A DNA stretch of 43,972 bases, the filler included, from Jimgerdemannia flammicorona (taxonomy: Eukaryota), in assembly GCA_003990765.1 (NCBI GenBank). It is 2 parts of 2 records of this genome, joined end to end, with 100 filler letters (N's around TTAATTAATTAA, not from the genome) between each part and the next. Parts side by side here need not be neighbours in the genome. Positions count along the whole stretch, not along the records: positions 1 to 21,941 come from RBNJ01001362.1; 1 more part is not named here. One strand, written 5' to 3'. The translations under genes were made by a program, and so were the position numbers. Under the pieces are notes generated by a model. It was given only the letters and a program-made list of their open reading frames with translations. It was not told the origin of the DNA and searched no databases. Positions 1 to 43,972 of this stretch are shown here, in pieces (the stretch's first letter is position 1; each line of letters starts with the position of its first letter).

Positions 1-3000
1 TCCCCCCTCCCTCCCCCCCCCCAGCCCTCAGCCCTAACCTGGCCAATATACATTTCCAGAACTCCCCCAGAACCTCACACTCGCCAAGCCAATGTTCAGG
101 CGTTTGTACCACCCCTCCCTCCTGACCAACATTGAAACAATCCTCGCACTCAAAAACCCCACCGTCCACCAAGTGATCAGACCGATAGTTCAGCATCACG
201 TTCCGCCGAAGGATCTGGCACCACGCCAACCAGAACTTGGGGGGCAGCCACTGCCTCACCCTTCTGCTCCAAAGCCAGAGCCCATTCCAATCCCACTCCT
301 CCCTGATTCCAACCCTCTGCCAGGCTTCAGGCCACAGGTCTCCACCCAGGCCTCGCAGGCACTCCAGACCCTCGCCAAGCTGAAAGTCCTCCACCGGAAC
401 ACCACCCAAAAGAAGCCTGTCCCATCTCCACATCTGTGGTCCCCAAACCTCCTCGGCCTCATCTCCTCACCACCGAAGGCTGATTTTCCTAGCTCCATCT
501 ACCGCACCCCACCAAAAGCCTGTAAACCGCATCCTCTGGCTCCCATCAATGGCCACCATTGCAAGCAGGTCGCCGGAGCCACTACGTGGGGAGTTACGAA
601 CCTCCCACAACCTCTGCATAAGTGGCACCCACTCCCGACCTCTAAGCTCACTCGCCCTCCTTAGCCACCAGGCCCTCAGACACAAAAGCTGCTTAGTAAA
701 GTCCACTAAGCCCAGTCCACCTCTTTCCAAGGGCAGTGTGAGCACCTCCCAACCAACCTGTCTCCGCCGCCCTCCCGAAATCCACGACCTCGCCATCTTC
801 AACAACCCCTTAACCACCCACAGTGGGAAATCCAAATGATATCCAACATACCACAGCTTTGGCATCCAGTACACATTCAACACCATCACCCTTCTGGCAA
901 GGGACATATGCCGACCTCCCCACTGAATCAAAACATTGCCCCACTCCAGCAGTTTATGGTCCCACCATGTCCGGGGAAGAAGAGATCCGAATGCCGAGAA
1001 GTAGATCCCCAAGTAGCACACTGGTTCACCAGCCGGAACCACCATCCCAATAACATCACCTCCTACAATTCCAGCACCCAGCACCAGTGTCTCGCATTTG
1101 TGCCAGTTCGGTTTAGCACCAGAGCCCCGCTCATACCATTCCACTGTCCTCTGTAACTCTCCAACATCCCCCAAGGAACCCAGTCCGACCACCATGTCAT
1201 CAGCAAAGGCCCCCACCTTCCAGTTCACCCCTAAAATGTCCAAGCCGCCAATCTTACGCCGAATCCTATCCAGTAGTGGCTCCAGGGAAAGGGCATACAA
1301 TATGGGTGACAAGGGGTCCCCTTGTGGCACCCCACGGCCCAGGGGGAAAGTCACTCCCCAGTGGCCATTGATGACCAATGCTGCCTGACTGTCCTCCAAG
1401 AGGCTGACCAATGACCCTCGGAACCCCGGGGGGATACCAATCCGCTTCAGCACTCCCTCCAGCCATATTCTCTGCACTCTATCATAAGCCTTCTCCTGGT
1501 CCAGAAACACCAATCTGCCATCCACCCCTGTAGCCCGGGTACCTTCAATCACTCCATGAACCCAGGCCGTCCCATCTCGAATCAACCGACCTCTGACAAA
1601 CCCACGTTGCTCCACCCCAAGCACCTGTTGTGCAATCCCTTGCAGCCGCAACACCATGATCTTCGTCACCAGTTTGCGGTCCATGTCCAGAAGCATGATT
1701 GGTCACCAGTTCTTCCAATCCTCCCTCCTACCCTTGTTCTTATAAAGCAAGGAGACCAGTCCCAAGTGCTGTCCCCCAATCCAGGCACCAGACCATAGAA
1801 CTTCATCACACATAGCCCTCATTTCCTCTAGTACCTCACGCACCCCTGTCATCTTCTGCCAAAAATCCCAGAGGAGTCCATCCTCTCCCAGGGCTGTCCC
1901 TTTACTCATAGACGCCACCACCTTGCAAATCTCCTCGCCACTCACTGGGTCCCCCAATGCCCCAAGTCCCACTGCAGAGTCTGGGTGCCAATCCCCCAGC
2001 TGCCTGTCAATGTCCAGAGCATCCAGTCCCCCTTCATCCTCACTCCAAAGGTTCCCCCACTGGGATCGCAATAGTTCCAAAATCGCCGGGGTCCCCATCA
2101 CCAGCTTGCCATCATCGTCCAAAACTCCCTCCCACCACTGCCTCGTTCGTCGAGCTTGTAACAACTGTGACAAGAACCTGGTAGGCCTCTCCCCTTCCTC
2201 AAGCCCCTGCATTCGTAAGCAGGCCACCATCCCCTGTAGTTGTTCCTCTTCCTCCCTTCGTAGCACCCCTTTGAGCTCCTCCACCTCCTGCCAGATTCTC
2301 GCAATACGCCAATCAGCCTCGGCCCTGTCCTCCAGCACACCCGCCCATCTCTCCATGAGCGCCGCCAAACGCCGCGAGGCCCACATCACCCGTCGCCTTC
2401 GCTGAGCACTCTTTCCTTTCCCTGCTTCCCTCCAATACCTCTGAGCCTTCACCTTCAGCCTCCTCCAGCGGTCCCCAATTGCCAGTCCTCGATCCCACCA
2501 CCTGCCGATATCTCCAACCACCTCTGTCTCCCAACCCTCCCACAACGTCCTATCCTCCAACAAGGAAGAGTTTAGCCGCCAATGTCCGGGCCCATCCTCG
2601 TTTCCCCCAAACCTCCCCCCTCCAAGCAACCCCCAGTGATCAGACCATGGACACCATACTACTCCCAGCACCGTCCAGACATCCACTCCCCAACACTCTG
2701 CTGTAAGAACCCAGTCAATCCTAGAGCCCAGTCCTGCTGCCCAATGGGTATACACCTGCTGATCTGCCCAAAAATGTCTCCCTGAGTCCATTAAAGAGCA
2801 CAATCTTTCCGTCTCCAACCAGTCCGCCAACCCACCACTCTCACCCTGCATGCCTCTCCCTCCATCAGTTCTGTCCAACTCCTTATCTCGTACCATGTTG
2901 AAGTCCCCCCCCATACAGTCAAACCCAATTTCTCCCAATAATCCATCCTCTTTCAAGCTGCGAATCCAATCCACCCTCTCCCCTCTCTCAGCCAGGCAGT

Positions 3001-3316
3001 AGCAAGACCCAACCATCAGCAAGCCCCATCCAGGCCTTTTCCATACTCCCCACACCACACGCGACCCCCAATGTCCAATGTCCCCAATGTCCCCCATCAC
3101 TTTCCGAACAAGAATACCCACTTTCCCCCTCCAAACTGCCGCACCCCCCCATTCCTTAGTCCAATCCTGTAAATCCACATCTGCCTCATACCAAACATCC
3201 TGTAACAAGAAGAGGTCTGCATCTAGATCCCAAAGCCAACCAAAAATGTACTTCCTCCTAGCCGCCCCCCGAAGCCCATTAACGTTCAATGAGAATATCC
3301 TAGTAGTACTGTTCAT
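1..3316 (-). pseudogene. LINE ORF2 (APE endonuclease + reverse transcriptase + zf-RVT) with two in-frame TGA stops
   Basis: APE motifs SLNVNGL, GDFN, SRIDW, SDH; RT motifs QRGFVRGR, LDQEKAYDRV, GVPQGDPLSP, FADD, YLG. Reading through the TGA at 1703-1705 gives NW*PIMLL (consensus NWRPIxLL). Reading through the TGA at 467-469 continues in frame to CEDC...QTPEHWLGEC and on to the window edge. Confidence 0.93.
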
Positions 3317-3347
3317 ATTGAGTAGATGTTGTAGAGGAGACCCTAAC

Positions 3348-5264
3348 CTATAATTCCATGCTCATCTCATCCCTCGCTAAGTCCAAGAGCCGCTCAGCTT
3401 CCATTTCACCCTCCGCAATATCCCGAGCATCCAGTGCCCCCAAGATTTCCTGACACTCCACCCTGTCCACCTCCTCCATATCCGCCCTGTAATCCAAGCA
3501 GACCACGCGCCACTTCTCCAGTCCCTTCCTCGAGTTCCACAAGACAAGTGCCCTATCGCTTGCAATCCTTCTAAGCTCCTCCTCTCGCTGATCATCAATC
3601 TGATACACAACAGACTTCAGGAGGACAGCCAGGATCTCATTCCTCATCTTCCTCGGCACCTCTTCCCTATGTAGAATCTCTTCCCAATGCCTCTCCTCCA
3701 TCACCCTGAAGTCCTCCCCCCCCAGCTCCTCAGCCGCCACCCCTTCCAGAGTCTTCCACATCCACTTCTCCTCATCTACCGCCTCCGCCACCCCCTGAGC
3801 AATTTGTCCCCCATCTACCTCAGGGTCCACCAGCGCGCTCCTCCTCACTGACTCATCCCACTCCACATCCGGCACATCCATCAGCTCCTCCTCGCCTCCT
3901 GCCCCATTCGGAATACTATACTGAAGGCGTCCACCTTTGCCCATTTCAGCATCCACCTCCAAGTTATCTTCCCTCCCCTCCCCGACTCCAATCTGAGCCC
4001 CGCCCTGGGCCATCTCACCTCCTTCAGCCCAGGCACTCTCCTGCAACCCTGCGGCCCCCTCCCCAGAGCTTCCACCAGTCCTACCCCCGCCCATCTTTGC
4101 CAACAGCTCTTTCTGGATCCTCCTCCCCTGCATCTTCTCCCAGGCTCCCTTCTCCATCCGAACCCTCTTCCCATCCACCTCCCCCACCACCGTCCTGGCC
4201 TCAAACTCCTTCCAGGCCAATCTCCTCCTCACAACTGCCCCTTCCAGATCCTCCAGAGCCTCCAACAAGTCCTCCTCCTCCTCCTGAGTCCCCTTCACCC
4301 TGGTGATCTTACACTCCACCGGTCCCCATCTCAATGCCGCTGGCCAGTCCCTTGACTTCCCCGTATTCTCCTTTCCAGCCAGTCTCACTCTGACATCAAC
4401 ATCTCCAGTCCTAAGCTCCATGCCCTCTCAGACCTTGAACCCAACATCCACAATCTTGCCATACTCCTTGATCGCCTCTACAACCAACTCCCTGGTCCTT
4501 TCCTTTGACACCATGGGAAGGTCCAACACCGTCAACTGCACCACCCGGGGGTCCCAGTGCATACACCGGGCCATAGGGACCATGACCCCGCCAACCATCA
4601 CCCCCTTTTCCATGGCTGCCAACAAGGCGTCTTCCTCCTCAAACCCCACCTCGACCCCTTCCTTTCCTCTCAAGAACTTCACCGATGCTGCTCCCTTAGC
4701 CTCCTGCGCCACTAGCCCCAAAATCATCCTCGCCATCACTGCCAAGCCCTGGAAGCACATCGTGACCATGAATTCGGACCTCGACTTCTTGAGTAATGGG
4801 GCCGACACCATGCCCATCACCCCATCTGCCAGGTCCCCAGGTCTCGTACCCCCTCCAAGCCCCAAATTACCAACTACCGTCACATCTGGATTTTTTGCCA
4901 GATCCCCAGTCACAGCCCCATCAACCGTCACATCTCCAGCCCCTACTCCGGCCCCTTCCCTACCACCAGAAGTACCCTGGGGTGCACCTCCCTGACCCCT
5001 AGCAGTAGCCATTGATGCCTTCCCCAGGCCCAGCCAACCATCCAGCCCAGAAGCCATCTTCCCCATCTTGACCTTGTCAGCAAAGGTCGTCCTCTCCCCT
5101 CCTCGCTGCTGCAGACCACCCCTCCCTCTGCCACTGGGGCCACAGCCAGCCATCGAGTCCCCTGGCATTCCCAAACCATCTCCCCTCCACCCCACCTGCT
5201 GCCAGCCAAAGACGCCATCACCCCCCTGGCCAGTACACTCACCAGATCGATCGTTGCCATCCAT
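3348..5264 (-). pseudogene. LINE ORF1 (gag-like, RRM-like core) split by one in-frame TGA at 4428-4430
   Basis: ORFs 4428-5264 and 3348-4421 are in the same frame (FKV*EGMELR). It lies directly upstream of ORF2 and contains the RRM-like segment LTVLDLP...IKEYGKIVDV. Confidence 0.8.
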
Positions 5265-5270
5265 GTTATT

Positions 5271-5628
5271 AGTCGTCGGGCACCAAAAATGTTGTAAAAG
5301 ATGTTGTCTGAGTCTTGTGTCACCCGAATGTTACTGGTAAAAGGCAGGACAATATCTTATTAATGATAGCAAAAGGAAGAAGGTGTTGCACCAAAACAGA
5401 TATACTCTAGACACAGCTAAAGGCACTAGAAACTATGAAAAAGTAGAGAAGACACTGATCTGATACCAAGAAAGAGGCAACTCATTACCATTGCCTCCCT
5501 CTCACTGCTCTGTAACAGGTACAGCAAACTAACCCAAGGTAGAGAGGGTAATAATTGTGGAAAGTAGACTCAGAAGGTTGTCTACCAAACCATTATAACT
5601 GGTAAGGTAGTAGAGAAAAGGTCTGATA
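5271..5628 (-). other. Leader upstream of LINE ORF1 resembling an LTR end plus primer-binding site
   Basis: Minus strand reads ...TTTTACAACA-TTTT-TGGTGCCCGACGACTAATAAC-ATG. The same TGGTGCCC follows the LTR of the Gypsy element at 25651-25658. It abuts the truncated Gypsy LTR at ~5629. Confidence 0.4.
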
Positions 5629-5629
5629 A

Positions 5630-5895
5630 CTATAAGGTGACTAAGTTATAACTATATTATGAGTTATTTTTTATAAATATTAATCTTTGATATCTGTTAA
5701 AACTTTGACAATCATCAAAACTTTAATATCTGTGAATTTTTGACATTTGTGAAAAGTTTAACATTCATAAAAACTTAATATTTATGAAATAACTACTATT
5801 TATAAGACTATACTATATTGGGAATTAGGTTTAGGTATTATAATCAAATATCTAATTCTCCTGATTTTTGTTCCTAATTTGGATTAACTGTCACA
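5630..5895 (-). repeat. 3' LTR of Gypsy 1, truncated/interrupted at ~5629
   Basis: Ungapped 266-bp match to 12499-12764; starts TGTGACAG on the minus strand; preceded by the purine tract AGGAGGAAG (5898-5906 region). Confidence 0.93.
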
Positions 5896-6356
5896 ACTTC
5901 CTCCTGAATAGATGATTTGTCCTTAAAATATCCTATTCACTCAAACTCCTAAGCTTCTATGATTTATATCTCCTTGTACTATACAATTTGTATCATTACA
6001 TTCTCCTAATAGTATCTCTTGATACATATATCCAAAGTCTCCTGGAACTACTCCTTGAAAATGGACTAGAGCTGCCTTATCATCTTTGAATAGCTTATTA
6101 ACTTATTTGATAATTGTGATCTGAGAGTGAGAGAGCTAGTACTCTCTGATCTAGTCTTCTTTTCCCATCTCAGGCTACAAATTCAGTAGCTATCCTAACT
6201 TGAAGTATTCTTAAAGCTCTGTCCAATTCTGGTATGCCTTGCAGTGTAAAATTTGTAACAGATATATTTATAATATACTTTGGATGTTGTTAAAGGATTC
6301 TTTCATTGTGGGTGACTTGGTAGTACACTATTGTCTTTCTATGGCTTGCTGTACAG

Positions 6357-6955
6357 TAGTGCTCCGAATGAGTCAATCTGGATGGGATTCGGATGGGATT
6401 CGAATCTCATTCCAATCAACTCAGATGGGATTCAAATCCCATCCAGATGGATTCAAATCAACCATTGTTTTGATTTCCAAATTAGACAATTAAATATTTA
6501 CATCAATAACTCGATGAATAATCATCCAAATTTGATGATCTTGGTGTTATTTGAAAGCCCTTAATAAGGCCTTTCTAATGATACCAAGGACATTAAATTT
6601 GGATAATGCGTTGCCAAGATATTAAGGAAAATGTTCTATTGACGAAATTTCCAAAATTGGCAATTCAGATGTCTTCCTTCATAACTCAGCAATACATGAT
6701 CCAATTTCAATGTTCTTGATATCATTAGATAAGCCTTATTAAGGGCTTTCAAATGACACAAATATCATCAAATTTGGATAATTATCCATCAAGTTATTGA
6801 TGTAAACATTTAATTGTCTAATTTGGAAATCAAAACAATCATTGATTCAAATCCATCTGGATGGGATTCAAATCCCATCTGAGTTGATCTGAATGGGATT
6901 CAATCCAAATCAATCCGAATCCAATCCAGATTAAATTGACTCATTAGGAGTACTA
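6357..6955. mobile_element. Non-autonomous hAT-type foldback MITE inserted in Gypsy 1
   Basis: TIRs TAGTGCTCCGAATGAGTCAAT and ATTGACTCATTAGGAGTACTA; perfect 8-bp TSD CTGTACAG at 6349-6356 and 6956-6963; inverted arms of ~280 bp cover nearly the whole element. Confidence 0.92.
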
Positions 6956-9699
6956 CTGTACAGTATTAGTGATTTTGAGAGCTGTAGCTATACTTTATTG
7001 ACTAGCTATGATATTTCTTAAGTCAGTTTCAGTAGATGGTAGTGGGAATGATTATGCTTGAGAGTTTTCATAGCCAAAAGGTGGTCTCTTTTATATCTTT
7101 TATAAGATAAGGTCCTTCCCACTTAGGCTTCAGTTTTCATGACCATGAAGCTTCTACTATATTCCAATATTCTAAGACCTTGTCTTCTATCTTGATAATC
7201 TCTAGAGACTTGTGAATCTTTTCTGCATTATTCCACTATAGTGTCTACACCTTAGTTATATAATTCTTGGCCTTTTTCCAAATTTGGTATAGTCTTTGTA
7301 TTTCTCTATCTATATGTTTCTATACAGCATCTCCATTGGATAATAGAGTTTCTTGAGAACTTTCTTCTCTGAATAGTATTTCTTGAGGAGTGAAATGGAT
7401 ACTTTGTGTTCAAATATCCCAAAGAGTGAATAATGCTATTAGTAGATAGTGATCTCGGTTTTTATAGTTATTACAGATCTTGGCAATAATATTCTTGAGA
7501 GTTTTATTAGTTCTTTCCATCTATCTATTTTCTTAAGGATAGTATGCTGTAGTCTAAATGTGCTGGATCTTGTACTTCTTATAGAGAACCTCAAAGAACT
7601 GGTTCATGAATTCTGTTTCTGTCTGTAGTTACTTGTATTGAGGTTTTGAACCAACAGATAATTTCTTTGTAAAATAAATCAGCAATTGACTGTGCATTAG
7701 CTTCTTTCAGGAGCCCTACCTCTATCCATTTCATAAAAAGATCTATGATGACAATGATGTATCAGTTGCCAGTCAAAGTCAAGGGTAGAGAGCCAATTAT
7801 ATCTATTGTAATGTGGGCAAATAGTACTAATTCTATATGTACTGATCCTGGGGCTTGATTTTGTTAATCTTATTTCTATTTCTGATATTTGTCACAGGTC
7901 TTGACAAACTGTCTGATATCTTCCTCAATTCCTGGCAACCATATTGTTCTTCTTGCTTTATCATATATGTTTATTCCTCCTAGATGACTAAGTTTGTATA
8001 TTGATTTCATTACTTACTTCTTCTTGTATTCTGGTATAACTAGTAGCTTCTCTTTCTTCAATATTTCTCTATCAGTTTTGAATTGTTTCTATGTTTTGTA
8101 AATAATTATTTGTATTCATTCTTCCAGATATTAAAGCATCTTTCACTATTTCAGATATGTGATAATTCTATAGTAGAGCTCTTTATTTATTTATGATTTG
8201 CTGGTTGAGAGTCCTTCAGAGTGTCCATGAGAGGATATCTACATTGGCATTGGTTCTTTATGAGCAGTGCACAATGGTTACATTATATACTTGCAACTTC
8301 ATAATCTATTTGGTATAGATTTCTTTGGATTGTCCAGTAGTCAGTAGCCAAGTAAGGGCTAAGTGATCTATCTAAATAGTGAAGTATCTCTCAGCAAGAT
8401 AGTAGTAGAACTTCTCTATAGCTCAGATGACTACAAGACATTCTAACTTATAGAATTTATATTCTTTTTCAGCTCCTTTGATTTCTCAGCTTAGGTATGC
8501 AATGATATACTCTACTTTATCTTTTTTTTAAACTAGGACTGCTCCTAGTCCTTGAGTGCTTATATCTATTTACAGGATGAATTCTTGAGTTCAATTGGGT
8601 CTTCTGAGGATAGGTACCTGGGTCAGTCTGACCTTAAGCTTATTGAATGTTTTTTGTTGCCTGCCCATCTATTGGAACTTGGTATCCTTCTTATTGAGTT
8701 TATAGATTGGACCTATAATATTGAAGAATTCTCTGATAAATCTTCCGTAGTAGGAGATGAGTTCTATGAAAGCTTGGGCTTTAGTAACTATAGTGGGCCT
8801 TGGGTATACTACTACTACTTGAATCTTGAGGGGGTCTGTATATATTCCATCTTGATTGATGACATAGCCAAGATAGATGATCTCAATTTTTATAAACTTA
8901 TACTTCTTGGGCTTGATATAAAGACTATGCTGTCTCAGCTTCTCTATTATCTGCTAGATGTACTGCAGATATTCTTCAGCTATCTTGCTGTAGATGATAA
9001 CATCATCTATATAAACCATTATCCATCTTTTTATGTCATAGTAGAAGATTTTGTTCATTATTTACTGGAAGCTTGCAGAGGTATTATACATTCCAAATAG
9101 CACTTACAGATAGATGTAGATTTTATCTAGAGTAATAAAGGCTGACTTTTCACTTACTGCTTCAGTGAGGTCAATTTGGTAGAATTTTGAGTATAAGTCC
9201 AAGATACTGTAGTACTGTACTTTATCTTCCAAGATTATAAGAATGTTACTGATAAGGAGTAATAGTTAGCAATCCTTCTTAGTAATTAAGTTGAGCTTTT
9301 TGTAATCTGTACAGAGTCTTAGGGCAAATTCTCCTGGCTTGCTTTTTTTTTTTGAGGCTAGTACAACTGGTGAAGCCCAGGGGCTACTGGTTTCTTTAAT
9401 GATACTGGCTTCTTTCATCTGCTTTATTTCTTCTCTGAGCCATTTGCAGTATGCTGATAATATTGATCTTGCTTTTTGGTAGATTGGTTCAGTGTCTCCT
9501 ATATCTATATCATAATAGTAATATGGGGTCTTCTCTTTGATATTCTTGAAATCTATAGCTAGGACATTCTCAAAATTATAGAGTATCTTCTTGAGTTCTT
9601 TCTTAAGTTAGAATTCATTTTCAATGGTATAACTATGCTTATTCATAGTTTCTTCCTTCTTGTGATCCAGTTTGGTGATCTTGGTACCAATAAATACTC

Positions 9700-10115
9700 C
9701 TCTTTCTATAGATCTAAATCCTTTCTTTTCTCTTTTCATTTCCTCTAACTTCTTGACTTTCATGATCCTTGGCTGAAGAACTGGGAGGATTAACATCTGT
9801 GCTAATCAGTCCTTTTTCTTGATTGGAAATGGAATTATAGAGTTATGGTTTTTAGCAATAAGCAGTATTTCTCCAATATAATCTGAATTGATAACTCCTC
9901 CTTTGATGGCAATTTTACTCTTAGTCAGACTGCTTCTTGTCTTGAGGATTCTGATATGGTCTTTTAGAATGGTCATCTCCAGACCAGTTGCAAGTAGGGT
10001 GGTTGTCTGGGGCTCAAGTATAGTTTCTTCTACTGTGGCAATATCTATTCTGGCTGTATTTTCTGACTTATATTCTGGTAGGACTGCATTGGAGTGGATC
10101 TTTTGAATCCTGACC
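9700..10115 (-). pseudogene. dUTPase domain in Gypsy 1 pol, between protease and RT
   Basis: Translation gives ARIDIA, TGL, TRSSL, GGVINSDYIGEI, LAQML, REKKGFRSI: degenerate versions of the five trimeric dUTPase motifs. Confidence 0.88.
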
Positions 10116-12254
10116 TTGATTTCTTCTTCATCATCACTGTCTTCCAGGAGGGCTGGTGGTTCATCATCCTCTTTTTTCTCCTCTTCTTTTATCTGCTTTT
10201 TAAGAGCCTTCTGTCTTCTTTTCTGATAGGTACCAATGCTATATTGATAGTAATTATTGATGTGCTCACTACAGTATATTTTGATTCTGTAGGGACAAAC
10301 TCCTTATAGTATATATTCTTCTACAATCTTCTTGCACCAGTTCTCTTTATTAATCCATTTGACTTTCTTCTTCTTTTTCTGAGTAGTTACCATATAGGCT
10401 TCTTCTTACTTGCTTTTTTTTTCCTCCATCTCAGATAGGACTCCTTTGTTGACATTGATGAGAATTCATATCTTCTGTCCATAGTAGGTGATCTGCATCT
10501 TCTGAGCATCTAGATCAATTACTATCTTGGTCTTGTGAAGCCATTGATTGCCAATAAGGATATCATAGTTGGTTATATTGGTTACAATTATATCTACTAG
10601 AATAGTTGCTCCTCCAAACTTGATGGAAACATCTCAGATCTTTCCCAGAGGTATAGCTCATACTATCTATTATTATGAATACTAATTTAGTTACTTCTTC
10701 AACTTCCCAACCTAGGCAATCTGCTGCTTTCTTGCTGAGGAGGTATTCTCCTACTTCTGTATCAATAATGGCTTTAAAGATTCTATCTTCAATCTGACAG
10801 ATTATATAGGTAGAGGTCTTGTAGTTATCTTTGCTCTCTTCTTCTTCTTGAACATTGTTGGCCTTGGTTATCTTCCAACCTTGCTCCTTGGTTATCTCAG
10901 CAGGTCCATATCACATTTGCTGTCTAAATGTGAGTATTTCTACCAGCTGGCCAAAGATTGCATTGACCTTTTATTGACTTAAGTTCTTGAAAATATCAAA
11001 CTTAAAGGTCTTGGTTTTGCAAAGCTTCTTCTTCTTTTCTCCTTTACTAGCTAGAGTAGTTTCTTAGATAATATCTTGAACAGCCTATTCTAGCTCCATA
11101 TCTTAATCCATTTCTTCATCTTAACTTTCTATAGTAGTTTCTATCTGCTTTCTCACCAAGGTTTTCTTGGATCTTCCTGGTGGTCTCTTGTAGAGTTCTT
11201 TGTAGATATCCTTCTTAGTGGTCTGTACAGAATAGGCCTCCCACTCCTCTTTATCAGACTCTTCAATTTCTTTAAAGGTAATGATGTTGGCCTGTTTCTT
11301 ATTTTGAGTAGTATTACTTAGCTGTGCCTTGTATTTTATTTCACTCATATATTCATATAAGTAGTGGTCCTCTTCTCTATAAGTATAGCAGGTATCTCTC
11401 TTTTTGTCTGAGATGATAGTAAACTTCTGAATAGGATGACAGTCTCTTCCTCTGATTTCCTTTATTATATCTTCTAGATAGGCAGTTATTTTAGCAAACT
11501 GCTTAGTGAGTTTCTTCATAGGATCACCATTTCTCTATTATTTAGTAGCTTTTAGTTGAGATGTATTTCAATTGATCACTGTGATAGAGATTATACTGGT
11601 TGTCTTGAGTGCTTCAATTCTAACTCTAGTAACTCTTTCTATTATATAGTCTTGTAGGTGCCTAGCTATCTAGTATTGCTGAGTATAGGTGACCTTCTAT
11701 ATCAGATTCAGAATTATTGGTGATGAGCAGATGATCAGAACTATCTCTGGGTAGATTTCTTTTATAAAGATTACTTCAGCTACTTGATCTCTAATGATAG
11801 TAGCATAATCTGTAAGGATTATCTAATATTAGATTCTAGTGTAGAATATATTTAGATCCTCACTTATTCTTTGGCATATTATATTGAGCTAATCTTTCAA
11901 TATCTGCTTGATCTCATCTATATAGTATATGGCTCAGAGCCAGGTCTTCTGTATTACTAGCATAGCATTGTTATCATTTTTTACATAGGTTGTAGCTATG
12001 AATGCTGCTCTTGCTGGTCCTTAGAGACTGAAGGGTATGAGAGTTATATACTTGCTACCTTACTGTTAGGTCCCTTACAGTGGTATATTGCTCAAAATCA
12101 TCAATAAAGATATGATTGACTCATTTGAAGTATAACTGTGAAATACTAGTAATCTCATATCCATCTTGTCTGAATATCTTGATTCAATTTATATAGTTAT
12201 TCAGGTGGTAGTTATTCATTATTCAGCTTGAAAGTAAGGGATTCATCTTAAATC

Positions 12255-12272
12255 ACCAATCAATAGACACCA
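12255..12272 (-). promoter_or_regulatory. Primer-binding site of Gypsy 1
   Basis: TGGTGTCTATTGATTGG lies 3 nt after the LTR end TGTTACA; homologous to TGGTGCCCATTGACTGG in Gypsy 2. The gag ATG is at 12246. Confidence 0.75.
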
Positions 12273-12275
12273 AGT

Positions 12276-12764
12276 TGTAACATAGTAGATACTTAACCTT
12301 GGAAGTATATCAGATTTCTGTATCTTGAAAACTTGATCTTCTTTGACTCTATAGAGTCCTCAGAATATAGGAGTGGGTGAGTTTGAAGTATATCTGCCCA
12401 TATGCTTACTAGTTCCTTTACTTTCTCTTTGCTTTAAACTATTTCAATCTGAGGTTTATTCACTCTAAGATACTGGATTATTTATATAAGTTTGCTAGCT
12501 ATAAGGTGACTAAGTTATGACTATGTTATGAGTCACTTTTCACAAATGTTAATCCTTGACATCTGTTAAATCTTTGATGATTGTCAAAACTTTAACATCT
12601 GTAAATTCTTGACATTTGTGAAGAATTTAACATTCATGAAAACTTAACATTTGTAAAATAACTACTATTCATAAGGCTATACTATATTGGGAATTGGGTT
12701 CAGATACCATGATCAAATGTCTAATTCCCCTGATTCTTGTTCCTAATTTGGATCAACTGTCACA
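12276..12764 (-). repeat. 5' LTR of Gypsy 1 (~489 bp, TG...CA)
   Basis: Termini TGTGACA...TGTTACA, followed by the PBS; matches the 3' LTR over 266 bp; CpG-rich unique DNA resumes just outside. Confidence 0.92.
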
Positions 12765-13144
12765 CCAGATACAAGTATTTATTTAGGTACTCAGAGCAGC
12801 AATATTTGAACTACGTAAGTTTCGCCAGGCGGCCTTGAGGTACAAGTTAAGCATCTTTCCGCCGGCCGAGTCTCACGGTATTTCGTGTAAAATAACGATA
12901 AAGCCAGATAATTTTCATATCATCTGAAAAAATTTAACCGGCGTTACAAGCGGATAGCAAGAAAATTCGGTCTACATGTGCTCCGAAAAGGAGTGTATGG
13001 ATATTCACCACGCATCGCAAGCTAATGAAGCAATGAAGATGATAAATGAAGAGAAGGAATCACATGGCCATTACACAGACAAATGGAAGAAAGTTCTCTT
13101 TGTAGTACAATTACAATCGGTAATATGTCTGAGGGTTTATTTGA

Positions 13145-22041: not shown

Positions 22042-22191
22042 GACATAGATAAACAGCTGGACAATAGCTAGCCTAGGTTAATGGGGGGGCAGTGCTTGGT
22101 GGGTGGTGGGGGAGGGTTTTGGCCTATATAGTCTAGGTTTCCTTCTAATAAAAATCCGCGGGACATGAGTCTGTTAAAAAAAAAAAAAAAA
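22042..22191 (+). mobile_element. 3' end of a LINE-like retroposon (AATAAA + poly-A) inserted in the RT region of Gypsy 2
   Basis: AATAAA at ~22147 and an A run at 22176-22191; reverse-complement homologue at ~38100-38235. Confidence 0.75.
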
Positions 22192-23037
22192 GATAAGGTA
22201 TCCTAGGTAGGCAATTTCCTGAGCTGCAAACTTATATTTCTTGGGCTTGATATAGAGGCTATATTCCTTGAGCTTCTTGAGAGTCAGTTATATATGGTTG
22301 ATATATTTCCATATAGTATTGCTGAAGATGATCATATCATAATATAGACAAAGAGCTATTTTCTAATCTCATTACTAAAGACTCTATTTATCATTTACTG
22401 AAAACTTGCTGGGATATTATATATTCCAAATAGTATTTACAGATAGACATAGGTGGTATTAGGTGTGATGAAGGTTGATTTCTCACTGGCATCTTAAGTA
22501 AGATCAATCTGATGAAAGTCTGAGAACAGATCCAAGATAGTATAGTATTTGGTTTTACTTCTAAGAGTAGTAAGGATTTTTTGAATATTTGGTAAGAGCT
22601 GCCTATCCTTCTTGGTAATTATATTGAGCTTCCTATAATCAATGCAGAGTCTTGGAGCAAACTCTCCAGACTTGCTTTCTTTTTTTGGGACTAAAATAAT
22701 GGGTGAAGCCCAGGGGCTGATAGCTTGCTTGATGATTCTAGCTTCTTTCATTTTCTTAAGTTCTGCTTACAGCTATTCTTTGTAGGCAGGTAGTATAGGT
22801 CTGGCTTTCTGGTAGATAGGCTTGGTATCACCAGTGTTAACTTCATAGTAGTACTTGGGTTCTTGATTGTAAATATCCCTAAAATTTATAGTAAGTACTC
22901 CTTCATTCTGATACAGGATCTTAAGAAGTTATTTCTCTAGGGGAAAGTTTTCTCCAATAATATATGTGTACTTATTCTGATCCTTATCTCTCTTGTGCTT
23001 GAGTTCAGTAATCTTGATAGTAGTATAGGCTCCTCTT

Positions 23038-23450
23038 CTAGTAGATCCAAAGCCTTGTTCTTCTCTCTTAGTCTTGATAAGTTCAATGGCTTCAGTGGTC
23101 TTAGACTTCTTAACTTCATGAATCAGCATCTGGCTAATCCTGTCATACTTCTTGACTTTGAATGGGGTGGTGGGGTTATGATTCTTGACTATAAGAAAGA
23201 TCTCACCAGTGTAATCAGAGTCAATTACTTCTCCTTCAATTGAGATTTTGCTTTTGGCCAGACTGCTCCTGGTCTTGATAATTCTAGTATAGTTCTCTGA
23301 CAACTTGACTCCAATTCCAGTACTAAGTAGAGTAATGGTCTGTGGTTTGAGGATAGTATCTTGAATACTGGCAAGGTCTATTCCTATGGCTCCTTCAGTT
23401 TTGTATTCTGGGATCTTGGCTTCAGGGTGAAACTTCTTAACCTTGAGGGT
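23038..23450 (-). pseudogene. dUTPase domain in Gypsy 2 pol
   Basis: GAIGIDLAS, STGIG, TRSSLAK, EVIDSDYTGEI, DRISQML, REEQGFGST. Confidence 0.93.
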
Positions 23451-26153
23451 GATATCTGGTTCTTGTTTCTCCTCATCATCACTGTCAGCTTGAAGCTCTG
23501 AGGGCTAGTTATCTTCTTTGGCTTTCCTTTTTACTTTAGCAGCTTCTTGCTCATATTTTTGTTGACAGATTTCCTTGACTTCATTGATATAAGACCAGTA
23601 GTCATTCAGGTGTTTGAAGCAGTATATTCTAGTACTATAGGGGCATCTTTCTTAAGAACCATAGCCATCAATAATCTTGTTATACCACTACTTATCTGTG
23701 AGCTTAGGTGTCTTGCTCTTATTCTTATATACTCAGTGCATAAAGACTTCTGTGTCCTTTTTATCTTCTTTCTCCATATCTAGCAGTACTCCTTTATAGA
23801 CATTGATAGAGACTCATACCTTTCTTCCTCTATAGTTGATCTGCATCTTCTGAGTATTGAGATCAATGACAGTCTTGGCTTTGTAAAGTTATTAGTTGCC
23901 AATGATGATATCATAGTTGGTGATACTTATAATAATCACATCTACTAGGATGGTAGCTCCTCTTATCTTGATGGGGACTTCTTGGATCTTGTCTAGGGGG
24001 GTAGCTCATATAATATCTGCTGTAATATAGACCATTTTGGTAGACTCTTCAATATCCTAGCCTAGGTGGTCAATTGTCTTCTTGCTTATGAGGCATCCTC
24101 TGGCACCAGTATCAATAATGGTATCAAAGATACAATCTTTGATCTGATATGGAGTATAGGCTGATATCTTGTACTGGTCTTCAGATTCTTCACCTGAGTC
24201 TTCAGATTCTTCTTGTGCATTATGAGCTTCTATGATCTTGTACTCTTAGTTCTTGACAGTAGTTGTAAGTTCTACCCTCAACTACTGTCTGAAGGCAGAG
24301 ACTTTGGCTAGTTGTCCAAAAGTAACATTGATCTTCTATTCCTTAAGATCCTTATAGATATTATACTGATGGATCTTGGTCTTATACAGCTTCTGTTCTT
24401 TCTTGCTTTCACTTTCTTCTGAGACTGAAGTAGTACCTTTAATAATTTGGTAAGCAGCTTCATCTAACTCTATATTTTGATCAATCTCCTCAAGTTGGGT
24501 TTTGCTTTAAATAGTGACAGCTGGGGTCTTCTTTAGTCTTCTAACTAGCTTGCTGTTACTCTTCTTATTATAAGGTTTAGACCAGATTCTGGCACCTTTA
24601 GTAATAGAGTAGAATTTGGACTCCTTATAGTATTCTTTATCATCAGTATCACCAATCTCCTTGATGATTACTGTATTGGTTTATTCTTTGGTTCTGGTAG
24701 TATTACTGGGTTGAGTCTTGTATTTTGTTTTGGTTATGTAACTCTTTACATAGTGGCCTTCTTCTCTATATCTGAAATATGTAATATTGCATTCTTCTAT
24801 AGCAACTGCAAATCTCTATACTAGTCTCCTATTGATACTTCAGACTTCTCTAACAATATTATCAAGGTGTGCAGTCATCTCAGTAAACTGCTTGGCAAGT
24901 TCCTCTACTGGATCAGCTTTGGCTATCTTAGGAGTAGGTAAGGATAGTTATCTGTTTATAACTATAGTGGGTATGATACTAGTTGGCTTTGATAGCTTTA
25001 TCTTGATGTTAGTTATTTTCTTTATTGAGTGTTTGGCAGAGTATCTGGCAGTCTAATATCTTTGTACAAAGACCACTTTCTGGTCAAGGGTCAGAGCAAC
25101 TGAGGTAGACCAGATTGCTAGGATAATTTCAGAGTGAACTCTTTTGAGGAAGATTGGATTAGTTATTTATTTCTTGAGGATATCATTATAGCTAGCCAAG
25201 ACAATCTGGTGGTAGATTTAGGTGTAGAATGAGTTAGAATCTTCACTAAGTCCCTGGCAGATAGTATTGAGTTGATCCTTGAGAGCTTATTTGATCTCTT
25301 CAGTATAGTATATAGTTCTGAGGAAGTTCTTCATGTTAGCAAGTTTGGCTGCACCAGTATCAGCAATAGTGGCTATATTGAACTTGTCTCTGGTAGGTTC
25401 TCTGAGGCTGATAGGTAGAAGAACCAATTGTATATCTATATCAAAGGCTCATATAGTGGTGAATTGTTCAAATTCTTTAATAAAGGTCAGGATAGACTCT
25501 TCAGTAGTATATTCATAGAATGTAGGGAGATATATTTTTATCTTGTCTTAAATTCTTGCAAGGGTGACTCTTGTAGTCAGAGTAGTTGTTGTGGTAATTA
25601 TTTATTTTTCAGCTTGAAAGTAAGAGATTCATCTTGAATCACCAGTCAATGGGCACCAAGTTGTCACATAGTGGTTGCTGAGTTCTTCAAATATGTCAGA
25701 TTTTCTCCAAGATATATCTCTTAGACTAACTACAAGTTCGTTATAAGCAAGTTCTTATTAGAGTATCTTCCTAAGATCTTATAGTTCTCAAACTTCTTAT
25801 CTTTAAACTGTCTTATTATCTCTTAGATTGCTTGTATGGAATTGAGGGTAAGTTAACTTGATTGACTTTATTTTAAAGGAAATAAGAGAGGTATTTATAC
25901 AAAATATAATTCAATGGTTGCTAAGTTATAAAGCTAAATATAAATTCCAATAACTAAATAAAATACTGGAATACAGAAAACTATGATTGTAAGTATAAAT
26001 TCAAGTATTTGTACAAATAGTTGCATAAGTTTAGGATGTCAGTAGAATTTCAGTAGTATAGGAAAAGGATATCAGAAGAATTCTGAGTTATGTAAGATCA
26101 GAATACCAGAAGAATAACAGTTATACAGAAAAAGGATACTGGTAGAATTCAGT

Positions 26154-26323
26154 TTTTTTTTTTTTTTTTTTTTATAGTCACTTGGACTCCTTTCCTTTAT
26201 TAATACCCATCTATTCTTTATAATTACAGTGATCCCACCCCCTATCCAATCCCCCTAGGGGGGCCTCCCCTCCCTACCTTTTCCCTATGAAAGACTACTT
26301 TGTCAAACACCATCTCCACCCTT
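26154..26323 (-). mobile_element. ~170-bp 5'-truncated LINE end or SINE inserted in the Gypsy 2 LTR
   Basis: Poly-T tract, TTTATT poly-A signal, and an exact 15-bp TSD CTGGTAGAATTCAGT at 26139-26153 and 26324-26338. Confidence 0.88.
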
Positions 26324-26399
26324 CTGGTAGAATTCAGTGTTATTAAGAACTTAAAGCAGAATATTCAGGACTATGGAGGCTTCATCTTTATCACTATTA

Positions 26400-27460
26400 T
26401 CAAGACTAGAGGTCAGAGACAGGATGTCTTTGAAGGAGATGAGATCTACAAACATTTTGTCTATTTCATATATATTATATAAGATGACATCATCACTGAT
26501 GACATTATCACATTCAGTAGCAGGGGCTCTCCAATCTATGACATTCTCTTCTACAAAATAAGAAACAAATATGAGGTCTTAGAGAGATCTAACCTAGATG
26601 CTAAAGCCTTGGAATGCTGAGATCAATCCTTATATAAATTGATCTAAGTTATCCTGGAGGATAGAATACTAGAAGTCCTCTATCTTATTACTATTAAGAG
26701 TGATAGTGGACTGAGCCTCTGTAGCCACCATAGCCTCTAGTATATTGGTGTAGTAGACAGACAGTTTCTTGAAGTCTGAGATTCTAATATACTCCAAGTT
26801 GGGGATTAACTATAGTGCATACCTAAAGATCTAATAAATCTTCTTTGCTGTCTTTATTTCACATATATCTATGAGGGTGATACATATCTTGAATCTCCTG
26901 GAGGCTGGTCTGAGGAAACTCCCAGCAGAGAAGGTTTTCTATTTTATACTCCTGTCATATCCAGAGGCATTCAGTAGCAATGGTGATCTTTGTTTCTATT
27001 TTACAGTAGTAGAGGATATAATGATAAGAGTTGCCAGTACTCAGGTTGAGGCTAGGAGTTCTTCTTATATAGATCTTCATGACTCTTCTGATATCTTAGA
27101 ACATCCTATCCTAGACTGAGGGACCTTGGTGGTTCCTGAACCTTGATATTTGGTAAGCAGTAGGTATTTTGTTTACATATAGTAAGTCTTTAGAACTATT
27201 TCTGTAAGCTTTGTTTGGATTGCTGCTACTGCAGTTTCTTGATCTTTCTTTTATATTCCTTAAGATATCTGTCTTGTAGTTACAATGACTTATAGTTAGT
27301 CATCATTACTCATCTTATAGTCTGGATGAGTCATACTATATAATTTTCTTATACTCTAATCTGGTGGCTTGTAAGAAAAGACTGTCTCCTATACTGATGT
27401 CATCATTCTGAGATCACTATTATAATAGATATTATTAGACTCTTGCTAGTTATACTAAGA
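26400..27460. repeat. Unclassified CpG-depleted repeat relic
   Basis: No CpG seen; coding-like decayed frames on the minus strand; no diagnostic domain recognised. Confidence 0.4.
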
Positions 27461-27469
27461 AGGAATAAA

Positions 27470-29100
27470 TATATTCTAATATTTATAGATTATCTAACCA
27501 AATGGCCCAAAGTTTTTCTAATAGAAATCATTAATATTTTGATCATTATTTGTCTTCTCTATAGTCTCATACTCAGATATAGACTTTCAGAAGAACTTAT
27601 CTCTAACTATAGTATATAATTTACTAATAAGTTAGTTATAACTTATATATATATATAAATTTACATAATCTATCTAAAAAGAACTATATTATATATATAT
27701 ATATATATATACTATCTTCAAACTAATAATATAATAGAGAGAATAAACTAGACTATTAAGAAGAACTTATCTGAGTCAATCTTACTAACTATGTAGAATT
27801 TCTACTTATTTGAGATTTTATAGAAAATTTAGAATACTTCTACTATCTCTACTAAAGAAAAGGCTCTTTGAGATAATATTTATCAAAAAGACCAGAACTA
27901 CTGATCATAAGAATCTTAGAGAACTCTTAGATAAGATAGAACAATTGTGAAGTCAAACTCAAGCTCAGATAATTAAGGTTTAAGAAAAGTAGAAGAAGTA
28001 TTATAACTAAAAGTAAAAGAATTAGAAGATTAAAATTAGAGATCAAGTTCTTATTTAGAAAAGTATAATTAAAATCAATTTTATTATCAAACTAGAACTC
28101 AAATAGAAAGGATCTTATCTAATATAAAATATTAGAAAAATAAGTATCTATATATATAAGAAGTATAAATAAATATACTTTAAAGACTTTAGTTTATATT
28201 AATTATCTCAAGATATGTATATCTATTACTTATATAATAACCTAAAGAATTGACCAGTATCTCCAAAGTCTTATTCTTAGCTCTTTTCAGATCCTACTAG
28301 TTTTTCTATTTATAGTTCTGTAAAATCAATAAAACTTACCTCCAACAGATCTAGATATACTAAAAGAACCTCACTCTAATAGAATGTCTACTGTAGATCT
28401 ACTAACTATAAGCATATTATATATGTAATTAGTAAATAGTTACAAGATATCCTAGTTCTAAAATAAGCCTATATCAGAAATACTACTAATCTATCTTAGA
28501 AGAATAATACTACTATAGATAGACTTTATATAATCTATAAGTAGAATATTATAGCTTTGATATAGACTTAGTTCTCTCTAAGCAATATACAAAGAATAAA
28601 TATAGCTACCTATCTGAGTATTATTGACTATATTGAAGTCTTGTAGAAGAAGAGCTTTTAAAATAAAGTAACTGAAATATAAAAAAAAAAAACAGTATAG
28701 ATATAGATATAGAAGATGCTTATAGATATCACAATAATGACTAAAGGATAATCTGGGACAGATTATTCTTTAGTAGTGACTGATGACAAGTGAATACTAT
28801 AGTATAGCTAAATAATATATATAAATAATCAGATGTATTAAACTGGATAACCTGATTTTAAGTGAAACACTTGTTCTAAGTAGAATACTCATTCTACAAG
28901 AAACACCCATCTTATAAGAGAATAAGTAGTTATTATATATTCTATAATTATTCAAATAGTAACCAGATAGCAACCACACTTACATATATAAAATACCCCA
29001 GAGATTCAAGTGAATAAACCTCAGTCTAAAAAGTCAAAGAAAAAAGCAAAAGACAAGTCTACCTATAATATACTTTAAAAGATATATCTGTCAAGAATTA
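27470..29100 (+). mobile_element. Third Ty3/Gypsy relic (integrase and 3' region), extremely AT-rich
   Basis: Decayed integrase motifs TKWP, EELISN (ISD), YYLQTNN..ER.N (YHPQTNG.ER.N), KLELK*KGSY (KL.PKWKGPY). Boundaries are approximate. Confidence 0.78.
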
Positions 29101-29968
29101 CTTAATCTAAGAAAAGAATGCAATACTTAGAAGAAACACCTGCTCTAAAGCCACTATTAAGGAGATTGTGAGCTTTATTCCCTTTTCCACTCTGGTCCAC
29201 TTTCTGATGATACAAAGAAGTCTGAAGAACTTAGAGAAGTCTGCCAATACCCTGAAGCCATGCCTAATAAGGAAATCGCCGAAATCATCCACATTACAAG
29301 AGAACATTTTGTTACTTTTTGACAAAGTAACTGGGGGCTCAAGCCAATCTACATAGCCACCCAAACCTTGTAATTTGGCTCTATTGAGCCGGCACGTTAC
29401 AATATCAAGGAAAGAAGGCGAAACGATCAGGCACGGATTTCTTCACTTCTTTTTAGCCGACATTAAGACGCTTTCCAGTTTACTGCTGGCGGGAAGGATT
29501 AAAATTATTGTATTTTATTTTTGGAAATAAAATTATTTCAAAAGCATGATGTTTACAGTGTGCCAATGACTTATATACAATGGGCCGAGACCTTTGAAGA
29601 CGCGCTATTCCCTATACCAATCAACGACTGGGATTTTATCCGACGGGAATCTCCACGATTTCAAACTAGTAGCCTCGGAGTAAGCAATGCAGCCAAGTCT
29701 GTCTCTTTATTGATTAACATTCTAGGCTTCTAGGACCATTGTTTGCCTAGGGTTCATACAGTGTACGGCACTAAACAGAGTTTGTTGGCAATCCTAGATA
29801 GCATCTGAAAGCACTAATTTGTACCCGTTCATTTCACGGAATCAATTATGTATGAAAATGCGAGATCATAAATTTCCAGTCATGCATCCTCACCCCACAC
29901 TACCCGCATGAAAGCCCATCTATATCACCTTCCCCCCCTCAACGGCCCACAGAACACCCTTGTCCTCC

Positions 29969-32900: not shown

Positions 32901-33418
32901 CAGCTGATCCTCGAGGTCTTGGACTACACCGACACCAAAATTTCCATCATTACCAATCCGCATCAGAATTCTCCATATGAATGAAGGAAATCACATGACT
33001 AACTCCCACCTGCACCAATACAACCCTTCCACGTCGGCTCAAACCTCGCCTCACGCTCGACAAATTCGCGCTCGATCCGCTTGACAAACGCGTCAAAAAT
33101 AGGGACGGCCTTGTCGGGGTTGCACACTGGGAGGATGGATGCGAAGTCCGGAAAGAGGGACCAGTCAACGAAGACGTTGGCAGTCGGAGGAGCGGAGTAG
33201 GGCGGCGGTGCGTCTACGACGGTGGTGAGGTGCCGCATGAGGGTGGGAAGGCGAGTGGGGACGAGAGTGGGGACGAGAGCGTGTCCGGCAAGTGTAGTGA
33301 AGCTAACGCGGGAGAGCTGTGCTAGGAGGATACGGGAGGAAATGGCGCGACTTGCATTTTGGAGTTTTGGGAAGATGGTTGCGCGGACAGCGCCGGTCCG
33401 CAAGAAGGGTCGATGCAT
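29969..33418 (-). CDS. Oligopeptidase A (peptidase M3A, PrlC/OpdA/organellar type) with predicted mitochondrial presequence, about 10 exons
   Basis: Spliced reading gives ISHLNSVKNSPELR, GPWCITLDAP, LGFDNYA, PWDIAY, RPEEKRSGAWMD, TLFHEFGHCLQH (HEXXH at ~31200-31230), [47 protein letters not shown]; TGA at 29969-29971. Confidence 0.95.
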
Positions 33419-37721: not shown

Positions 37722-38061
37722 TACTTTCTCCACTAGATTAGATATACTGATTTTCACCACGAGACGCGGGTACGGAACAATATAACAATATGCAAACTGC
37801 AATGGCATGAGTACATTTTATTCCCCATCACCATTTTGTTTGGGAACCCTTCTCTTACATGTTTCACGTGTGGGTCTGGTTCGTCCTAAGAGGTGGTGTA
37901 CGCAAAGCTGCAGTGGCTTGGTGTATACATCTTCCATTCCTCACTTTGTTCATAGTAATACATATATATAATGCTCAGCTTAAGTTGACTTTAATCATAT
38001 TCACCCCTTCTTTTCTATCAACTATATTAATACTATATTACTCAACCTTATAGTCAGAATT

Positions 38062-38979: not shown

Positions 38980-39079
38980 TAGTGCTCTGAATGAGTCAAT
39001 TTGAATCAAATCTAGATTTGATTCATCACATAATGGTTTGATCTAAATCTCAAATCCAAAGCTATCTGAATCAACTTAG

Positions 39080-39390
39080 AATAATCTAAATTACCTTATC
39101 TGAATTGCTCTATTCAAATTACCCATCCAAATCACTCCATCTAAACCACTTCATCCAAACCACTCAATCTGAATTACTCAATCTAAATCACTCAATCTGA
39201 ATTACTCAATCTGAATTACTTAATCTAAATTACTCAATCTGAATTACTCAATCCAAATAACTCAATCTGAATTACTCAATCTGAATTTTCTAATTTGAAT
39301 CCTCCAATTTGAATCCTCTAATTTGAATCCTTCAATCCAAATTCTCATCTGAATCCTTTAACTAAATCCTCCAATCTGAATCCTCCATAT
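39080..39390. repeat. Tandem array of 14-bp (ACTCAATCTGAATT) then 13-bp (CTCCAATTTGAATC-like) units; hAT subterminal repeats
   Basis: Roughly 20 degenerate units directly inside the left TIR. Confidence 0.85.
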
Positions 39391-42640: not shown

Positions 42641-42649
42641 AGTCTAAGT

Positions 42650-43909: not shown

Positions 43910-43972
<63 letters not shown>

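Follow-up and report, generated by a model that had tools for sequence, protein, structure and literature searches.

A repeat-confined C-to-T mutational footprint extending beyond CpG in a 44-kb window of Jimgerdemannia flammicorona

Could a C-to-T mutational process directed at repeats, similar to repeat-induced point mutation (RIP), have acted in an early-diverging fungus? The question is raised by Gypsy1, a Ty3/Gypsy retrotransposon at positions 5624 to 12764 of the window analysed here, i.e., the whole stretch of 43,972 nucleotides from the Jimgerdemannia flammicorona assembly GCA_003990765.1. The window consists of two contigs, and positions 21942-22041 are an artificial six-frame-stop linker (N44-TTAATTAATTAA-N44) between them. 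The original prediction for this DNA was of a RIP-like C-to-T hypermutation, restricted to repeats and extending beyond CpG. The explanation favoured here, which we regard as reasonably probable, is a C-to-T mutator confined to repeats, most likely cytosine methylation in all sequence contexts followed by deamination. The element that raised the question has the following parts.

Positions 5624..5895, minus strand: long terminal repeat (LTR) a of Gypsy1, the 3' LTR in element orientation; GC content 0.217, 29 inferred C>T/G>A changes
Positions 5896..12492, minus strand: internal region of Gypsy1, with gag, protease, dUTPase, reverse transcriptase (RT), RNase H and integrase
Positions 12493..12764, minus strand: LTR b of Gypsy1, the 5' LTR in element orientation; GC content 0.305, 6 inferred C>T/G>A changes

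Gypsy1 is a full-length Ty3/Gypsy element on the minus strand. Its LTRs end in TG..CA, and its Pfam domains follow the Ty3/Gypsy layout on that strand (RVP_2, dUTPase, RVT_1, RT_RNaseH and Integrase_H2C2), with many in-frame stops in the interior and one frame change ahead of the integrase. The homology between the LTRs (5624-5895 and 12493-12764) extends over 272 bp with 35 transitions, 2 transversions and no gaps (86.4% identity). The count given in the original prediction for 266 bp of this homology (5630-5895 versus 12499-12764), i.e., 35 differences including 34 transitions and no indel, was exact, and the sole transversion in that comparison lies at 5702. About 20 of the changes had been ascribed to CA or TG becoming TA, and 20 LTR changes were indeed found at CpA/TpG. 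The claim that an ancestral CG had been resolved to TG in one LTR and CA in the other is borne out by double differences at 5709/5710 and 5713/5714. Judging from these two unresolved CA/TG double sites, the LTR would have had about seven ancestral CpGs, and most of the CpA changes would then be true CpA changes. Transitions outnumber transversions by 35:2 in the LTR pair but only by 29:20 in a genic duplication, and the ratio is about 1:1 in old repeat pairs; the excess of transitions is more than chance. Both strands were affected in LTR a (16 C>T and 13 G>A).

The mutations are not spread evenly over the window. Three AT-rich repeat blocks, 20.7 kb in total, contain 10 CpGs where 584 were expected.

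Positions 5326..12813, no strand: CpG-depleted block 1, with 9 CpGs versus 211 expected, GC content 0.336 and both edges sharp
Positions 22160..29276, no strand: CpG-depleted block 2, with 1 CpG versus 190 expected
Positions 37902..43972, no strand: CpG-depleted block 3, with 0 CpGs versus 183 expected

At the upper edge of block 1, LTR b ends at 12764 and the next CpG follows at 12814, 50 bp outside the LTR. The TpA/ApT ratio was 0.92-1.21 in repeat regions and 0.68-0.76 in genes, and the observed-to-expected (o/e) ratio of TpG/CpA was 0.99-1.07 in repeats versus 1.06-1.13 in genes, i.e., without any surplus in repeats. CpG o/e was 0.98-1.04 in genic regions. Single-copy neutral DNA, in which the same bias would have spoken against the original prediction, was available in the introns of an expressed peptidase M3 gene.

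Positions 30198..33009, minus strand: nine introns of the peptidase M3 gene, 1087 bp in total, defined by spliced RNA contigs and used as the control

These introns showed no such bias, with 46 CpGs, a CpG o/e of 0.99, a GC content of 0.41 and a TpA/ApT of 0.64. The spliced RNA contigs came from two runs, X1 and X2, of the same or related species and from two studies; those of X1 matched the gene with 7 differing letters over the 6 pieces listed (about 2350 nt) and those of X2 with 62, corresponding to about 99.7% and 97% identity, respectively, and small parts of the gene were also carried by two root metatranscriptomes.

The same gene was used for placement of the host. Its open reading frame (ORF) of 279 aa at 31296-32135 (-) was 87% identical to a protein of Jimgerdemannia flammicorona, a genus belonging to the Endogonales within the Mucoromycotina. 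Among the best 120 of 608 matches, Mucorales and Umbelopsis came next (54-57%), followed by Mortierellomycotina (44-49%). By the evidence of this gene, with 87% identity against 54-57% for the next matches, the host is an Endogonales fungus, i.e., early-diverging and root-associated, and not a member of Pezizomycotina. This agrees with the early-diverging host supposed in the original prediction, for which a host in Pezizomycotina would have meant ordinary RIP. Basidiomycota, to which most Atlas look-alikes of the endonuclease of a long interspersed nuclear element (LINE) in the window belonged, were dropped as a host marker, since a LINE is mobile and the peptidase gene indicates Endogonales.

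The direction of the changes was established in a second element.

Positions 22042..26150, minus strand: Gypsy2, of a family related to Gypsy1, truncated at 22042 by the end of the contig; upper boundary approximate

As the window is made of two linked contigs, the break of Gypsy2 at 22042 is the end of an assembled sequence and not biology. The reference for polarising was P0121, an intact metagenome protein of 514 aa (end of the protease, dUTPase and start of the RT), with which the process could be polarised without presuming its direction. Gypsy2 at 22398-23939 was aligned with it without a gap (390/514 identities, 0 indels in 1542 bp). C>T/G>A alone suffices for 106 of the 124 amino acid differences and transitions in the opposite direction alone for 11, whereas a transversion or a mixture is needed for 7. 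Gypsy2 has 12 stops relative to P0121 (Q>* 7, W>* 2, R>* 2, S>* 1), and its missense changes included C>Y (4), G>E (4), G>R (4), G>S (3) and G>D (2). In Gypsy1, which is more distant from P0121 (264/515 identities), 112 of 244 differences were forward, 23 reverse and 109 other. P0121, at 51%, was the closest protein to Gypsy1 in a word-indexed search (23 hits). An exhaustive search of representative proteins gave P0203, a short relative of 232 aa with 68% identity to Gypsy1; over 225 aligned codons, 72 differences were divided into 40 forward, 14 reverse and 18 other. A single metagenome scan with P0121 gave no DNA of a close copy, but 3 loci only, with 38-42% identity in the dUTPase part alone.

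Of the loss of cysteine and glycine codons that had been claimed for both elements, the knuckle changes were seen in both and the glycine changes in Gypsy2. The zinc knuckle of gag has the motif CX2CX4HX4C; its relic reads C..Y....H....Y in Gypsy1 (11349-11390, -) and Y..Y....H....Y in Gypsy2 (24738-24779, -), and the tyrosine positions were presumably once cysteines. The changes of Gly to Arg, Glu or Asp are those counted above for Gypsy2. Along the coding strand of Gypsy2, 69 G>A and 42 C>T changes at amino acid-changing sites were interspersed, with 62 strand runs versus 53 expected (P(runs<=obs)=0.97), i.e., without strand clustering. The pattern suggests numerous separate hits on either strand and not a few strand-coherent bursts. 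In both Gypsy families, the dUTPase lies between protease and RT (9779-10100 and 22929-23504, -; Pfam E 1e-18 to 5e-26), and the intact relative P0121 has the same protease-dUTPase-RT layout.

The sequence context of the mutations was obtained from several sets of sites. In the LTRs, with C or G taken as ancestral at every differing site, the per-site rates were 20/84 for CpA, 4/28 for CpC, 7/56 for CpT and 4/8 for CpG, the last meaning that all CpGs were lost; a preference for the 5' base was not visible in the LTR pair (ACA 8/32, TCA 10/42). In Gypsy2, only those sites were taken at which the ancestral amino acid dictates the adjacent base: CpA from His, Gln, Cys, Trp and Met codons, CpC from the first position of Pro, the second of Gly and the third of Trp, and CpT from AGY Ser and AGR Arg. 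The rates there were 27/65 for CpA, 13/64 for CpC and 4/29 for CpT (CpA versus the rest, p=0.002), and the loss of non-CpG cytosines in dead transposons amounts to roughly a seventh to two-fifths. The comparison of Gypsy1 with P0203 gave 6/21, 1/20 and 4/12, respectively. When these three non-overlapping sets were pooled, CpA was mutated at 53/170 sites, CpC at 18/112 and CpT at 15/97; the CpA preference over the rest (33/209) is about 2-fold (odds ratio 2.4, p=5e-4). Expressed as -ln(surviving fraction), the values in Gypsy2 were 0.54 for CpA, 0.23 for CpC and 0.15 for CpT, and that for CpG can be estimated at about 4 from the 10 of 584 expected CpGs that are left. All contexts are therefore raised, in the order CpG >> CpA > CpC ~ CpT, with CpG as the dominant target.

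Non-CpG mutation is real. The possibility that TA sites stem from ancestral CG applies to some of them at most, as the 27 of 65 codon-fixed CpA cytosines mutated in Gypsy2 indicate; moreover, the second step in CG>TG>TA is a non-CpG change by definition, so that a CG origin cannot abolish non-CpG mutation. All three conditions that would have refuted the original prediction (a Pezizomycotina host, TA sites derived from ancestral CG, the same bias in single-copy DNA) thus turned out in its favour, and the hypermutation that it described, restricted to repeats and extending beyond CpG, stands. RNA contigs with at least 80% likeness to 22042-42041 were compared with the window in the RNA-covered parts, genic differences included. 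For X1, 359 transitions and 57 transversions were found, with A/T in the window where the read has G/C at 217 sites and the reverse at 142; for X2, the corresponding numbers were 532, 81, 314 and 218. In 40 of the 847 rows of differences, 33 were transitions, with 21 at CpA, 7 at CpC, 4 at CpT and 1 at CpG.

The usual RIP indices gave a divided picture. RIP is indicated by TpA/ApT >= 0.89 together with a Margolin substrate index (CpA+TpG)/(ApC+GpT) <= 1.03. The values were 0.92 and 1.38 in Gypsy1 and 1.09 and 1.20 in Gypsy2, so that only the first index lies in the RIP range in both elements. Apart from three single 1-kb windows (at 27, 28 and 38 kb), the only stretch with both indices in that range was 26200-29500 (1.15 and 0.97); within block 2, 27001-29000 had a TpA/ApT of 1.20-1.26 and a substrate index of 0.69-0.85. 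The stretches in which the two indices agree (27-29 kb and 38-39 kb) are the most degraded ones. The RIP-like part of the original prediction is accordingly only partly upheld: non-CpG C>T confined to repeats was found, whereas the CpA signature is only about 2-fold after normalisation, CpG is dominant and the substrate index in the Gypsy copies does not fall to the RIP range.

Other repeats in the window differ in how far they share this pattern. The tandem repeats of about 100 bp in block 3 (42123-42640) showed 39 transitions and 4 transversions. The ratio was near 1:1 in older repeat pairs, i.e., 343:281 between Gypsy1 and Gypsy2, 12:11 for 22056/38226 and 14:19 for 6473/6647. A genic tandem duplication of about 165 bp at 14793-15154, in a region of normal CpG content, has 69% identity, 29 transitions and 20 transversions, and CpGs are kept in both copies; this short repeat is not hypermutated. 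Also not hypermutated, nor AT-rich, is the LINE directly adjoining Gypsy1.

Positions 1..5330, minus strand: LINE with endonuclease and RT, given for contrast; GC content 0.56, CpG o/e 0.45

Its long ORFs are broken by just three in-frame TGA. The coding strand of the LINE is unusually rich in G and poor in C, with G at 0.37-0.57 and C at 0.08-0.23 at every codon position, and the proteins are rich in Gly and Trp. In the minus frames of 21900-29500, only the domains of Gypsy2 were found by Pfam, and no domain was found in the Pfam scan of the plus frames of 26200-29300 or of all six frames of 37900-43972. Block 3 contains a 14-bp minisatellite of 18 units (39097-39348) with CCA (5), CTG (about 9) or CTA (3) at one site, which looks like an ancestral CCG resolved to CA, TG or both, and with C/T alternation in several further columns. 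Within Gypsy1, the part downstream of the integrase (6124-6800) keeps 7 of the 9 CpGs of block 1 and appears less touched by non-CpG changes; TpA/ApT is low (0.61) and the substrate index high (1.92) at 6001-7000. The 6473/6647 pair named above is a 135-bp tandem duplication in this element (6473-6607 and 6647-6782). Between the control gene and block 3, the depth of RNA contigs at 35382-37382 was very high in X1 and X2 (word depth about 10^3 to 2x10^4), and this region was also present in two root metatranscriptomes; its ORFs had no Pfam match except a faint ricin-B-lectin (E 0.0097, 37015-37458). RNA contigs joined 34523 to 37678/37680 with non-canonical ends.

Mutation type, direction, context and confinement were read directly from these comparisons, with genes, introns and a young LINE left untouched. 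The favoured explanation of a methylation-linked mutator goes further and proposes a mechanism, a set of enzymes and a timing. Heterochromatin-directed methylation would mark the repeats, CpG being maintained by an enzyme of the DNMT1 type and the non-CpG sites being methylated by a DIM-2-like one. The resulting 5-methylcytosine (5mC) would then deaminate to thymine, either spontaneously or with the help of the methyltransferase. The end result would be the same as in RIP, i.e., an element permanently inactivated by stop and missense mutations, and neither RID nor a meiotic homology search would be required. According to PMC9963178, Endogonales and Glomeromycota have homologues of the DIM-2-like type, and RID is present in Pezizomycotina only; according to PMC8016269, functional Dim2 of Zymoseptoria drives C>T at CA in methylated transposable elements (TEs) during mitosis.

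Several points weigh against this explanation. The assignment of enzymes is based on passages of one paper dealing with other Endogonales (PMC9963178). The Dim2 mutator of Zymoseptoria spares CpG (PMC8016269), whereas CpG is the prime target here, and therefore at least two activities have to be assumed. Neurospora DIM-2 is said to prefer CpT, the least-mutated context here. In the LTRs alone, CpA (20/84) did not differ significantly from CpC and CpT together (11/84, p=0.11), and the raw excess of CpA changes there mostly reflects the abundance of CpA. No CpA preference was seen between Gypsy1 and P0121 (11/40, 20/59 and 6/22 for CpA, CpC and CpT), a noisy comparison that was given little weight because true divergence prevails in it (109 of 244 differences were other). 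P0121 and P0203 are relatives and not ancestors, so that ordinary divergence is included in the reverse and other classes. The mutational load is unequal between LTR a and LTR b (29 versus 6, binomial p=1e-4), which is not expected from uniform passive decay, and no target-site duplication flanking Gypsy1 was found under any LTR boundary tried, which hints at a recombinant element. Therefore, it is not assured that the two LTRs were identical at insertion; two insertions may have recombined to give Gypsy1, or there may be a position effect near the gene-rich side. Finally, all findings come from one 44-kb window of two joined contigs.

The unequal load is in line with a second explanation, a true RIP-like defence, in which duplicates recognised by homology are actively deaminated in bursts, e.g., before meiosis, by a non-RID enzyme with the order CpG > CpA > CpC/CpT. 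Partner copies can be hit unequally by RIP. The extreme excess of transitions, the absence of indels, the many stop codons, the sharp edges at repeat boundaries and the parts of the blocks in which both RIP indices agree are also consistent with it. Outside Ascomycota, RIP-like hypermutation with a target that contains CpG exists in Pucciniomycotina (PMC3318451), and DIM-2 is able to mediate RIP in Neurospora according to passages of PMC8016269. However, C>T and G>A changes are closely intermingled, without strand runs, and an essentially intact GC-rich LINE adjoins the mutated Gypsy1. Endogonales genomes are reported to be large and TE-rich (96-240 Mb), which argues against efficient killing of repeats, and a kingdom-wide k-mer screen found RIP-like enrichment in four ascomycete classes only (PMC12543289). 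We consider such a defence possible, though clearly less probable than a methylation-linked mutator. Ordinary decay is a still weaker candidate and rather unlikely: here CpG-only methylation would have removed the CpGs, and the rest would be AT-biased, transition-rich neutral mutation of old dead elements. In its favour, no other signal comes near that of CpG loss, the loss of all CpGs from an ancestor with about 47% GC could alone lower GC by about 12 points according to our arithmetic, the CpA preference is modest and old repeat pairs have a transition to transversion ratio near 1. On the other hand, non-CpG C>T is too frequent (27/65 at CpA and 13/64 at CpC, versus 7 of 124 amino acid differences needing a transversion or mixture). 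Nor would ordinary decay account for the 0 indels in 1542 bp and the 35:2 ratio of the LTR pair, for introns of a single-copy gene that keep their TpA/ApT and GC values, or for TpG/CpA values in repeats that are not enriched over genes, contrary to the expectation for CpG-only mutation.

Two further explanations are far less probable than any of these. Editing of the retrotransposon cDNA by an APOBEC-like enzyme during reverse transcription, by which copies would be born mutated, could be suggested by the G>A excess on the coding strand of Gypsy2 (69 versus 42 C>T), but such an excess is to be expected, as G is presumably commoner at first and second codon positions. Both strands of the LTRs were hit, the tandem repeats in the same blocks, which are not retroelements, show the same transitions (39:4), and CpG loss spans whole blocks including sequence without a recognisable element; this origin is very improbable. 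Least probable of all, if only by a little, is an artefact of DNA damage in field-collected material or of assembly error. Endogonales genomes have been sequenced from field-collected fruiting bodies and the window is composed of two contigs on an artificial linker, but damage would neither stop at edges sharp to 50 bp nor spare the adjacent genes, and related copies that differ in the same way occur in independent RNA contigs of two studies.

Based on the literature found, a RIP-like footprint would be new for this fungal group. RIP-like enrichment was found in four ascomycete classes only in the k-mer screen of Badet and Croll (2025, PMC12543289), and RIP signatures were not detected in Mucoromycotina according to Dallaire et al. 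(2021, PMC8647823), who refer to Venice et al. (2020) for this. The usual description of early-diverging fungi is that N6-methyladenine (6mA) dominates and 5mC is scarce. No report of C>T hypermutation in Endogonales was found in the literature; Chang et al. (2019), Venice et al. (2020) and Bewick et al. (2019) or their supplements may hold the TE composition or RIP indices of Endogonales. It is conceivable, but for now doubtful, that Endogonales have a genuine repeat-directed, cytosine-deaminating defence without RID, perhaps via a DIM-2-like enzyme, with the order CpG >> CpA > CpC ~ CpT. If this were true, Mucoromycota would have a RIP-type mutagenic defence, whether convergent or ancestral to the DNMT1/DIM-2 lineage before Dikarya, and the published absence of RIP signatures from Mucoromycotina would be contradicted. 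More generally, the footprint suggests that transposons of the Endogonales lineage undergo dense cytosine methylation or deamination, and that the DIM-2-like genes reported there may be mutagenic. In practice, TE ages based on LTR divergence and TE annotation based on similarity will be strongly biased in these large, TE-rich mycorrhizal genomes.

The pattern shares features with several known systems and is identical to none of them. As in canonical RIP of the Neurospora crassa type, which is RID-dependent, C:G>T:A transitions are confined to repeats, ORFs are riddled with stops, indels are lacking, TpA/ApT rises to about 1 and block edges are sharp. Unlike in canonical RIP, it is CpG that is chiefly hit, CpA is preferred only about 2-fold in the pooled sites and not in every set, strand clustering is absent and neither Gypsy copy has a depleted substrate index; the host belongs to Endogonales, whereas RID is reported only from Pezizomycotina (PMC9963178). 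The hypermutation in Pucciniomycotina (Horns et al. 2012, PMC3318451) is likewise non-ascomycete, repeat-directed and CpG-centred, but it is described as specific to TpCpG, whereas here non-CpG mutation is substantial and the LTR pair has no 5' preference. Passive decay of methylated CpG, as in vertebrates and in TEs of Rhizophagus, a member of a related fungal phylum with high CG methylation on TEs (PMC8647823), also results in TE-restricted loss of CpG. Confinement of the depletion to what would be methylated repeats is apparently shared by the present case (10 versus 584 expected, o/e about 1 elsewhere). However, CpG loss is near total here (10 of 584), non-CpG C>T is heavy (27/65 at CpA, 13/64 at CpC) and there is no TpG/CpA surplus, whereas decay of this kind would give CpG-only mutation with such a surplus. 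The Dim2 CA>TA mutator of Zymoseptoria tritici, called 'mitotic RIP' (PMC8016269), is similar in being a methylation-linked C>T process on TE DNA that favours CpA. It needs no meiosis and depends on an enzyme of the DIM-2 class, a class reported for Endogonales in passages of PMC9963178. In Zymoseptoria, >98% of C>T is at CA and CpG is spared (PMC8016269), whereas here CpG has been eliminated and mutation extends to CpC and CpT; in type and location, the mutations in this window nevertheless appear to agree with the Dim2-type pattern, in which >95% of the changes are C>T and lie in TE or 5mC regions.

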